Source: a virus
IMG/VR virus record: IMGVR_UViG_3300045988_098456
DNA length: 64,000 nt
Strand: one strand, 5' to 3'
Below, piece after piece: positions 25,061 to 25,495 of this stretch. Each line of letters begins with the position of its first letter. The stretch's first letter is position 1. The translations under genes and the position numbers were made by a program. The notes below the pieces were generated by a model. That model saw nothing but the letters and a program-made list of their open reading frames with translations. It was not told the DNA's origin and made no database searches.

Positions 25061-25133
25061 GCTGCATTAGACAAGTGGTTAAGTCGCCAGCTTTTCACGC
25101 TGGTATTCAAAGGTTCGAATCCTTTATGCAGTA
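25061..25133 (+). tRNA. tRNA-Glu (anticodon TTC)
   Basis: Hand-folded cloverleaf: acceptor GCTGCAT/ATGCAGT (G-T at 1-72), anticodon arm CCAGC-TTTTCAC-GCTGG, T arm AAAGG-TTCGAAT-CCTTT. Confidence 0.8.
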
Positions 25134-25139
25134 CTAAAT

Positions 25140-25210
25140 TGCCCTATGGTGTAATGGTAACACTACAGGTTTTGGTTCTGTCATTAGTGGTTCGAATCCA
25201 CTTGGGGCAA
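25140..25210 (+). tRNA. tRNA-Gln (anticodon TTG)
   Basis: Acceptor TGCCCTA/TGGGGCA, D arm GTGT-AATGGTA-ACAC, anticodon arm ACAGG-TTTTGGT-TCTGT, T arm AGTGG-TTCGAAT-CCACT. Confidence 0.8.
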
Positions 25211-25240
25211 CAAGATGGAATTGGTATATGTTCCACACAA

Positions 25241-25325
25241 GGTGCGATATTCAAGCGGTTAAAGAAGATAGACTGTAAATCTATTCCCATTGTGGGTTCG
25301 GTGAGTTCGAATCTCCCTTGCACCA
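25241..25325 (+). tRNA. tRNA-Tyr (anticodon GTA), long variable arm
   Basis: Acceptor GGTGCGA/TTGCACC, anticodon arm ATAGA-CTGTAAA-TCTAT, 15-nt variable arm; one T-C mismatch in the T stem. Confidence 0.75.
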
Positions 25326-25347
25326 CGAGTAACTTTTGTCGATTACG

Positions 25348-25420
25348 AGGAATGTAGCTCAGTAGTAGAGCACTTGGCTTGGTAACTAAGGGGGCGTTGG
25401 TGCAAATCCAACCATTCCTT
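25348..25420 (+). tRNA. tRNA-Thr(GGT)-like with 8-nt anticodon loop CTTGGTAA
   Basis: Acceptor AGGAATG/CATTCCT, D arm GCTC-AGTAGTA-GAGC, anticodon stem CTTGG/CTAAG enclosing 8 nt, T arm GTTGG-TGCAAAT-CCAAC; no 7-nt-loop register pairs. Confidence 0.65.
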
Positions 25421-25423
25421 TAC

Positions 25424-25495
25424 GCTTTCGTAGCTCAGTGGCAGAGCATAGGATTTTTAATCCTAGGGTCGAAGGTTCGAATCCTTCCGTTGGCA
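25424..25495 (+). tRNA. tRNA-Lys (anticodon TTT), two T-T mismatches in the acceptor stem
   Basis: D arm GCTC-AGTGGCA-GAGC, anticodon arm TAGGA-TTTTTAA-TCCTA, T arm GAAGG-TTCGAAT-CCTTC, acceptor GCTTTCG/CGTTGGC. Confidence 0.65.

Follow-up and report, generated by a model that had tools for sequence, protein, structure and literature searches.

The stretch of viral DNA presented here (IMG/VR virus record IMGVR_UViG_3300045988_098456; 64,000 nucleotides (nt), analyzed over its full length and hereafter called the window) bears a cassette of five tRNA genes and two additional tRNA genes inside a leftward early operon. A preliminary description, made from the letters alone, had listed these seven genes and had read them as a kit of nuclease-resistant replacement tRNAs directed against host immunity. 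We called tRNA genes with ARAGORN and with the Rfam tRNA model RF00005 at a threshold of 29 bits, and both methods recovered all seven, each at 47-67 bits, thus confirming the list (Table 1). The fourth gene of the cassette, here named tRNA X, is a Thr-derived tRNA-like gene with an enlarged anticodon loop.

Table 1. The seven tRNA and tRNA-like genes of the window and the other elements of the cassette transcription unit (positions in the window).
Feature	Coordinates	Strand	Characteristics
tRNA-Glu(UUC)	25061-25133	+	66.7 bits; loop UUUUCAC
tRNA-Gln(UUG)	25140-25210	+	58.7 bits; loop UUUUGGU (G37)
tRNA-Tyr(GUA)	25241-25325	+	47.2 bits; long variable arm, canonical loop CUGUAAA
tRNA X, Thr-derived tRNA-like gene	25348-25420	+	59.1 bits; 8-nt anticodon loop CUUGGUAA
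tRNA-Lys(UUU)	25424-25495	+	66 bits; loop UUUUUAA (U32)
Asp-like tRNA gene, anticodon AUC	58604-58676	-	51.1 bits; loop CUAUCAC, A34, A73; early operon
tRNA-Arg(CCU)	59215-59288	-	55 bits; C33, T-stem G-A mismatch; early nin-like operon
Bacteroidetes-type promoter (predicted, consensus match only)	24884-24915	+	cTTGCA, 21 nt, TATCTTTG
Leader, promoter to first tRNA	24916-25060	+	invariant blocks; recognizable in the diverged L083 cassette
Structured RNA, hairpin ending in U-run	25497-25650	+	154 nt; minimum free energy -51 kcal/mol, z = -5.3
89-aa gene, helical protein with acidic C-terminal tail	25678-25947	+	codon-position variation and no indels
Intrinsic-terminator-like hairpin	25982-26019	+	12-pair stem 25982-26009, then TTTTTTTAT

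Concerning the structure of the encoded molecules, tRNA X has the D loop AGUAGUA and the T loop UGCAAAU, so that position 55 is a G, and the extra base of its anticodon loop is placed there by both ARAGORN and Infernal. The acceptor stem of tRNA-Lys contains two adjacent U-U mismatches (4:69 and 5:68), which are kept in 82 relatives of the phage; in two diverged relatives, L641 and L083 (L-numbers are our labels for IMG/VR relatives), one and none of them, respectively, are found. The loop of tRNA-Tyr is fully canonical, and the assignment of the Asp-like gene to the queuosine family fails on its A34. None of the phage tRNAs encodes the 3' CCA, which is also lacking in the tRNA genes of the host family. 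The Asp-like and Arg genes are located between the NinB-like, phrog_19572 and NinG genes, with SSB and Erf also nearby; neither has a separate promoter motif, and the promoter at 62551 presumably drives both together with the rest of the early operon. Recoding of stop codons by suppressor tRNAs was ruled out by the 93% coding density under genetic code 11 and by the lack of any suppressor anticodon.

PHROG and Pfam matches to a tape-measure protein (at 12464-18739) and to a major capsid protein (at 29385-30473) mark the window as siphovirus DNA. The same databases led to an S24/HTH repressor-like protein at 62689-63819 and to Erf, SSB, NinB, NinG, a helicase and a replication initiator in the leftward early operon. 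The DNA is 95% identical to an unannotated phage contig from human feces, and IMG/VR holds 269 relatives of the phage, in which the genome runs on past the window end and an integrase is established just beyond it. The interval between repressor and integrase is laid out like an attP site, with a core between AAATTGCCGCAAAAT arm repeats. In over 120 Prevotellaceae genomes, complete Segatella copri chromosomes included, the 3' two-thirds of tRNA-Arg(UCU) agree with this core over 42 nt without a mismatch. The core (63937-63994 in the window, 11245-11310 in L110) is a D-arm-less copy of that tRNA, which keeps the 5' acceptor strand, the anticodon arm, the T arm and the 3' acceptor strand, and its acceptor stem can still form; an eighth tRNA-like Rfam match at this position (34 bits) was accordingly rejected as a tRNA gene. 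A tyrosine integrase follows the core just outside the window, many provirus contigs stop at the attP point, and one contig whose capsid is 99% identical is part of a metagenome-assembled genome (MAG) of S. copri. At 51% capsid identity, prophages were found in large Paludibacteraceae contigs. Given the attP core and the contig in the S. copri MAG, the phage is temperate and integrates into tRNA-Arg(UCU) of Prevotellaceae, the host being most likely the Segatella (Prevotella) copri complex, or else close Prevotellaceae. The GC content is 37% for the phage and roughly 46% for the host. The IMG/VR contigs of the relatives span 63-222 kb, and L110, at 222 kb, has a contiguous attP; the larger related contigs may be concatemers or permuted assemblies and not longer genomes.

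Codon usage of the phage was taken from the window genes (16,500 codons) and that of the host from 30 non-redundant S. copri genes which flank the integration site in a dozen strains (~13,000 codons). We ranked 45 codon classes by their phage excess per 1000 codons and compared the tRNA set with random sets of the same size by permutation. The codons AAA, CAA, TTG, TTA, GAA and ATA occupy ranks 1 to 6 in that order, followed by GAY (7), AGA (9), ACA (11), TAY (14), AGG (16) and, near the end of the list, ACY (39). Expressed as a ratio of phage to host usage, CAA shows the largest fold excess (4.1), with AAA at 2.1 and GAA at 1.4. The permutation gave p = 2e-4 for Glu/Gln/Lys and p = 4e-4 for the six tRNAs without tRNA X. 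Alternative alleles found in the relatives also read over-used codons, namely TTG (rank 3) for anticodon CAA, GAT for AUC and ACA (rank 11) for UGU, and tRNA-Gln(UUG), the most persistent member of the set among relatives, decodes the codon with the greatest fold excess. Hence the earlier claim, which preferred nuclease-resistant tRNAs over codon supplementation as an account of the set, does not hold, with AAA, CAA and GAA at ranks 1, 2 and 5 of 45 and GAY at rank 7. The preliminary description had itself set its reading against tRNAs that are near-identical to those of the host and serve over-represented codons; the over-representation was found, whereas the near-identity was not found for Thr and Asp. 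Glu, Gln, Tyr and Lys combine the properties of functional tRNAs with a match to codons used more by the phage; for tRNA X, read with a GGU anticodon (ACY), there is no such match. Overall, the cassette is an ordinary phage tRNA operon, odd as some of its members are, and we favor, with a probability of about 0.55, that the set raises the supply of decoders for the codons that this AT-rich phage overuses relative to its host, codon or translation supplementation being the best-supported driver.

Several observations weigh against supplementation. The major capsid gene, the late gene with the highest expression, has host-like codons (AAA 14% of Lys, CAA 40% of Gln), and as a result the classical expectation that late structural genes rely most on phage tRNAs is not borne out; indeed, AAA and CAA are less frequent in the capsid gene and the head module than in the rest of the genome. 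The over-used codons TTA, ATA and AAT have no phage tRNA, the codons of Tyr (rank 14) and AGG (rank 16) are weakly over-used, and the phage under-uses ACC/ACT (rank 39), which a GGU anticodon would read. The host table comes from those ~13,000 codons near one locus, and codon supply leaves unexplained both U32 of tRNA-Lys and its two U-U acceptor mismatches. The tape-measure gene is rich in CAA. For the capsid gene, the GC content at third codon positions is 0.44, and AAA makes up about 45% of Lys codons in the rest of the genome.

Variation among relatives was studied in alignments of the cassette from 82 of them (92-96% identical) and of the Arg/Asp region from 60; per-site diversity was not used for the latter, as it is distorted by deletion alleles. 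In the cassette, the spacers are the most variable parts with a nucleotide diversity (pi) of 0.08-0.21, while the tRNA bodies range from 0.004 to 0.044 and next to no variation is found in the anticodon loops of Glu, Gln, Tyr and Lys (0-0.007). Additionally, the anticodon stem of tRNA-Tyr shows compensatory changes at 25270/25282 and 25269/25283. Based on the invariant loops and the compensatory pairs of the Tyr stem, these four tRNAs behave as working decoders, with purifying selection on decoding. The loop of tRNA X, in contrast to its body (pi 0.043), reaches the spacer level (0.134), with segregating sites at 5 of 8 loop positions versus 11 of 65 body positions (p = 0.01). It comprises 7 or 8 nt, the 8-nt form being the majority, and has at least seven sequences among near-identical phages. 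The gene for tRNA X is found at ~5107-5182 in L002-L081 and at 4665-4740 in L641. The alleles of the cassette relatives are CUUGGUAA (majority), UUUGUAA (Thr UGU), UUCGUAA (Thr CGU), CUAUGCAA, A/UUUGGUAA, U/AUUGGUAA and CAUGGUAA.

The early-operon genes are also polymorphic. The Asp(AUC) allele is confined to the window and L145 (2 of 60). At this locus, 54 of the 60 relatives have a D-3'/anticodon arm of unrelated sequence, in which the stem has 4 bp, position 33 is C and the anticodon is CAA or AAA. Acceptor and T arms remain identical while the D-3' and anticodon arms interchange, for instance in L093 (5916-5988) and L155. For tRNA-Arg, the majority allele has the canonical loop UUCCUAA and scores 67.5 bits; C33 appears in 5 of 60, the T-stem mismatch is seen in the window alone, the gene is deleted in two relatives, and in two the loop is enlarged to 9 nt. 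The C33 state is thus recurrent, as it is found in the Asp-like gene, in the tRNA-Arg of the window and in a Met-like tRNA of L641. Judging from these alignments, the oddities of the Thr-like, Asp-like and C33 Arg genes belong to the alleles of this genome and not to the phage population. The loop and stem deviations that had been put forward in support of nuclease resistance are therefore mostly unstable minority alleles (Asp AUC in 2/60, Arg C33 in 5/60), together with an X loop that changes at the spacer rate.

Cassettes of more distant relatives were reached via the capsid gene and the 89-aa gene which follows the tRNAs. The cassette of L083 reads Gln-Ala-Met-Lys and that of L641 Glu-Gln-Ala-Met-Tyr-[X]-Lys, while L636-L639 bear a lone Gln(UUG) directly 5' of the small gene. 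tRNA-Gln(UUG) is present in each lineage with any tRNA, and its loop is common to four lineages (the window clade, L083, L641 and L636). Also persisting across the diverged lineages are U32 of Lys, which both L083 and L641 have, U32 and G37 of Gln, and the unusual loops of the D and T arms of tRNA X; the Glu loop is unchanged in L641. Relatives with 51-57% capsid identity have no tRNAs near the capsid gene, to ~10 kb upstream in the available DNA, and for this reason the cassette looks like a recent accessory gain.

These data also bear on the counter-defense reading, according to which the cassette replaces or out-supplies tRNAs destroyed by a Prevotellaceae nuclease of the PrrC/RloC, PARIS, retron-PtuAB, HEPN/Cas13 or Schlafen type, the phage copies evading cleavage via changes in the anticodon stem-loop or being over-made from a strong promoter. 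We regard it as possible but rather unlikely. As the preliminary description stated, there are documented phage tRNAs which overcome immunity by tRNA cleavage (PMC10264068, PMC11555353, PMC11464382): tRNA-Lys of T5 acts against PARIS (PMC11464382), tRNA-Tyr of T5/SP15 against retron-Eco7 and a phage tRNA-Lys against PrrC170 (PMC11555353), and loop mutations of this kind have been predicted in mycobacteriophage tRNAs (PMC10264068). However, the PARIS-resistant tRNA-Lys of T5 has a canonical loop and stem changes, which makes loop oddities an unreliable signature. Moreover, the make-up of the set cannot be disentangled from codon demand: U-rich anticodons both read A-ending codons and are favored nuclease substrates, so that membership cannot discriminate between the two readings and, being shared by both, cannot favor counter-defense. 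The set does overlap the list of nuclease targets (8 of 20 amino-acid families) with a nominal p of about 0.004, although the list was drawn up with the set in view and the association is less strong than that with codon usage. The absence of a codon-usage explanation, which served as a criterion for mycobacteriophage tRNAs (PMC10264068), does not apply to this phage.

The preliminary description is supported in that tRNA-Lys bears a loop deviation which is both conserved and rare. U32 is present in all 82 relatives and in the two diverged lineages, whereas C32 was found in 249 of 250 bacterial tRNA-Lys(UUU) matches with search patterns that allowed C or U at this position. The sequences searched were 240 blocks of unrelated bacteria and two MAGs of Bacteroidales; several other Bacteroidota are represented among the matches, Prevotellaceae are not, and the sample serves solely as a base rate for C32. 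Among unique IMG/VR sequences of tRNA-Lys, 5 of 85 have U32, which is commoner than in bacteria (Fisher p about 0.005). U32 is shared by the phage Glu and Gln tRNAs and G37 is carried by Gln, all of them minority states in a small mixed bacterial sample (U32 in 1/16 Glu(UUC) and 4/21 Gln(UUG), G37 in 1/21 Gln(UUG)). Host-family tRNAs were obtained with ARAGORN from 120 Prevotellaceae blocks of 8 kb around tRNA-Arg, which yielded Thr(UGU), Asp(GUC), Glu(CUC) and a few others; the direct phage-host comparison of stem-loops therefore covers Thr and Asp, and the rarity of Lys U32 is relative to bacteria at large. The host-family tRNA-Glu(CUC) itself has U32, which speaks against this base as a mark of resistance. 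tRNA X resembles the Prevotellaceae tRNA-Thr(UGU) in U73 and in its variable-loop and T-stem sequence, and the Asp-like gene resembles tRNA-Asp(GUC) in the D arm and loop, with a G34A difference. In both comparisons the differences are distributed throughout the molecule and are not loop-specific, and the 7-nt allele of tRNA X has the same anticodon loop as the host-family tRNA-Thr, which, like the canonical Tyr loop, weighs against counter-defense. The variable loops, furthermore, evolve at about the neutral rate of the spacers and not faster.

Also in favor of counter-defense are the recurrence of C33 in this phage family, the character of the cassette as an accessory module with its own predicted promoter, and the richness of the phage in other anti-defense functions (four DNA methyltransferases and a Mom-like protein). 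LshCas13a has four favored tRNA substrates, Lys(UUU), Glu(UUC), Gln(UUG) and Thr(UGU) (PMC11042736), and these cover four of the five cassette members if tRNA X is counted as Thr-derived. Nevertheless, over-expressed Lys, Gln, Glu and Leu tRNAs gave no growth rescue under Cas13a targeting (PMC11042736). As for repair of cleaved tRNAs, for which T4 uses Pnk and Rnl, no RNA ligase or polynucleotide kinase/phosphatase is among the 25 of 31 Pfam families listed for the 110 open reading frames (ORFs) of the window, past which the genome continues. A PADLOC analysis of the same 110 ORFs returned only DNA methyltransferase models among the 25 of 152 matching families listed. The modification genes, which comprise three N6/N4 methyltransferases, one C5 methyltransferase and the Mom-like gene, are located at ~34-40 kb and elsewhere (e.g., 34359-35465), and genes for a ThyX-type thymidylate synthase and a dUTPase are also present.

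A more specific version would have the cassette tuned against U-specific cleavage of anticodon loops in Prevotellaceae, whether by HEPN-type enzymes (e.g., Cas13b collateral activity) or by PrrC/RloC-like nucleases; Cas13b systems belong to Bacteroidota. Resistance would then depend on U32 (in Lys, Glu and Gln) and on the recurrent C33, tRNA X and the Asp-like gene would be decoys or escape variants whose often enlarged loops are driven apart among strains by nuclease pressure while the cloverleaf is kept, and the structured RNA and the 89-aa protein would belong to the same module. Taken jointly, these proposals are improbable in our judgment. In sum, the data agree with an additional or parallel role against tRNA-cleaving immunity, but the set can be explained without one.

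For tRNA X and the Asp-like gene only, there is another candidate explanation, to which we give a little less than an even chance: both could be tRNA-shaped RNAs kept for their fold, with loops drifting freely, and serve as RNase P/Z punctuation or as stable tRNA-like RNAs. As punctuation, for example, tRNA X would mark processing for the adjacent tRNA-Lys, which begins just 3 nt after it, and the Asp-like gene would do so for the mRNAs of its operon. ThrRS, the threonyl-tRNA synthetase, uses the G1-C72 and C2-G71 pairs in Escherichia coli, and U55 is universal; tRNA X has neither these pairs nor U55, and it is devoid of U55 and of the standard G18-G19 motif of the D loop in every lineage (G19 may remain). 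Its loop stands at spacer-level diversity, while the stems of its body are maintained by compensatory changes, the T stem keeping its pairing through G-C to G-U to A-U changes. The invariant acceptor and T arms of the Asp-like gene next to interchangeable D-3' and anticodon arms, its 4-bp stems and its C33 suggest the same, and the annotation of T5 places tRNA-like stable RNAs of unknown function between tRNAs. On the other hand, the 8-nt allele of tRNA X is the majority and recurs on several backgrounds, which could indicate selection, and most of the allelic anticodons still match over-used codons.

The 8-nt loop also raises the question of frameshifting. In Salmonella, sufJ is a frameshift-suppressor tRNA with an 8-nt anticodon loop, derived from a tRNA-Thr by mutation. 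A Thr-type body with an additional anticodon-loop nucleotide is what tRNA X shares with it, and a loop with UGGU or GGU on such a body, in the majority allele of 82 relatives, would fit a natural +1 decoder of the quadruplet ACCA/ACCN needed for a frameshifted phage gene. Unlike sufJ, tRNA X is natural and polymorphic, its extra base stands within or 5' of the anticodon, and its T and D loops are non-canonical. No fusion or splitting of ORFs tracks the 7- and 8-nt alleles over the 13 kb compared (20.2-33.3 kb in the window), the loop varies at positions 32-34 as though unconstrained, and with a coding density of 93% in the standard code there are no obviously broken genes, all of which leaves frameshift decoding very improbable. 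A diversity-generating retroelement behind the variable loops was likewise considered and rejected, since the differences among alleles, judged by eye, are not restricted to adenines; no reverse transcriptase is among the 25 of 31 Pfam families listed.

With respect to transcription, the preliminary description had placed a promoter at the head of the cassette. A sigma-70 scan found nothing at the cassette; this model was dropped as wrong for a Bacteroidota host and replaced by the Bacteroidetes -33/-7 motif, which the predicted promoter fits, with its -7 motif TAnnTTTG (TATCTTTG) at 24908-24915. The promoter is nearly invariant across the 82 relatives. The bipartite motif occurs 12 times in the window against 3.5 expected, and the form seen at the cassette matches five TTTGCA...TATCTTTG sites (20346-20377, 33558-33589, 41484-41515, 57594-57625 on the minus strand and 62551-62582 on the minus strand). 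A near-identical promoter family (TTTGCAnnTTT...TATCTTTG) appears to mark the transcription units of the phage, and a divergent promoter pair at ~62.5-62.7 kb flanks the repressor gene. The leader between promoter and first tRNA shows no significant fold (z = +0.85) and no Rfam match.

The proposed closing stem and U-run near 25640 proved to be real, as the base of the long hairpin that follows tRNA-Lys, but they are probably not the end of the unit, which probably extends through the 89-aa gene to the strong terminator at 25982-26009. The next TATCTTTG promoter motif is found at 26132, and the cassette is self-contained, as had been claimed. The pairs of the hairpin RNA are preserved in 60 haplotypes, with a compensatory pair at 25530/25618, and 12 compensatory pairs were identified over seven diverged sequences, in which the unpaired GAATAAAGTTGTGAATAAG is invariant; it matches no Rfam family and is possibly a stable RNA, a processing element or a terminator. 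The 89-aa gene has 13, 6 and 33 variable sites at the three codon positions and no indels in the 82 relatives, and this codon-position pattern marks it as a real gene. Homologues of its protein are restricted to this phage family, and in diverged relatives the gene is established directly 3' of the lone tRNA-Gln(UUG) or of the six-tRNA cassette. The protein has no Pfam or PHROG match, and its AlphaFold model is modest (pLDDT 72) with no fold match in the PDB. Directly after the cassette and before the head genes, 26241-27786 is occupied by an Amidoligase_2 gene and then by a gene resembling class-II glutamine amidotransferases.

Under codon supplementation, the cassette would act as an accessory operon just upstream of the head genes, transcribed as one precursor which would run from the promoter through Glu, Gln, Tyr, X, Lys, the structured RNA and the 89-aa gene to the terminator. 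Host RNase P and RNase Z would cut the precursor into mature tRNAs, and since no CCA is encoded, the CCA-adding enzyme of the host would complete them. The four well-conserved tRNAs would mainly boost the decoding of CAA, AAA and GAA, whereas tRNA-Arg(CCU) and the unstable tRNA-like gene would ride in the early recombination/replication operon, like the rare-codon tRNAs of the lambdoid nin region. The genes themselves, the way in which they are conserved, the family of the host and the gap in codon usage have been shown, whereas we infer that the tRNAs are expressed, processed and charged and that they confer a fitness benefit.

Among known systems, the tRNA region of T5 comes nearest in layout: in its annotation, promoters and tRNA genes alternate with small ORFs, with "stable RNAs with unknown functions" and with "tRNA-like stable RNAs". 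Lys(UUU), Gln(UUG), Thr(UGU) and Tyr are among the T5 tRNAs. T5 is nonetheless virulent and has 23 tRNAs covering most amino acids (PMC11464382), while the present phage is temperate and has five plus two. The PARIS-resistant tRNA-Lys of T5 has the loop CUUUUAA and stem changes near the 40/41 cleavage site (PMC11464382), in contrast to the U32 loop found here, and individual T5 tRNAs are proven counter-defense factors (PMC11464382; PMC11555353), whereas no defense system is known for the present host-phage pair. The hairpin RNA after tRNA-Lys is reminiscent of the T5 stable RNAs of unknown function. Lambdoid Stx phages bear the rare-codon tRNAs ileZ-argN-argO in their nin/late-regulatory region. 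The likeness to the codon-compensating tRNAs of lambdoid and AT-rich phages consists of the match to codons that the phage uses more than its host and of a tRNA-Arg for an AGR codon within a NinB/NinG-type early operon of a temperate siphovirus; the host-adapted capsid gene and the two members with unstable anticodon arms set the present phage apart. Finally, the tRNAs of mycobacteriophage cluster C1 have been predicted to be insensitive to nucleases (van den Berg et al., 2023; PMC10264068), and departures of the anticodon loop from the usual bacterial sequence, here Lys U32, are common to both. In cluster C1, however, codon usage of phage and host is alike and both the nucleases and their cleavage sites are known (PMC10264068), while in our case usage differs strongly and neither is known.

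Phage tRNA genes are now being re-read as anti-immunity devices, and the present case illustrates that the composition of a set is no evidence for such a role: in an AT-rich phage of a GC-richer host, anticodon nucleases and Cas13a prefer the very tRNAs, with U-rich anticodons, by which A-ending codons are read. Counter-defense, if true, would be the first such case in Bacteroidota. Apart from this, the locus provides modest leads, namely the strain-level turnover of two anticodon arms (one with a majority 8-nt loop), a conserved RNA, a small acidic protein linked to the cassette and a D-arm-less tRNA copy at attP. The phage is very common in human gut data and the S. copri complex is medically relevant, highlighting a large natural population in which the two readings may be separated.

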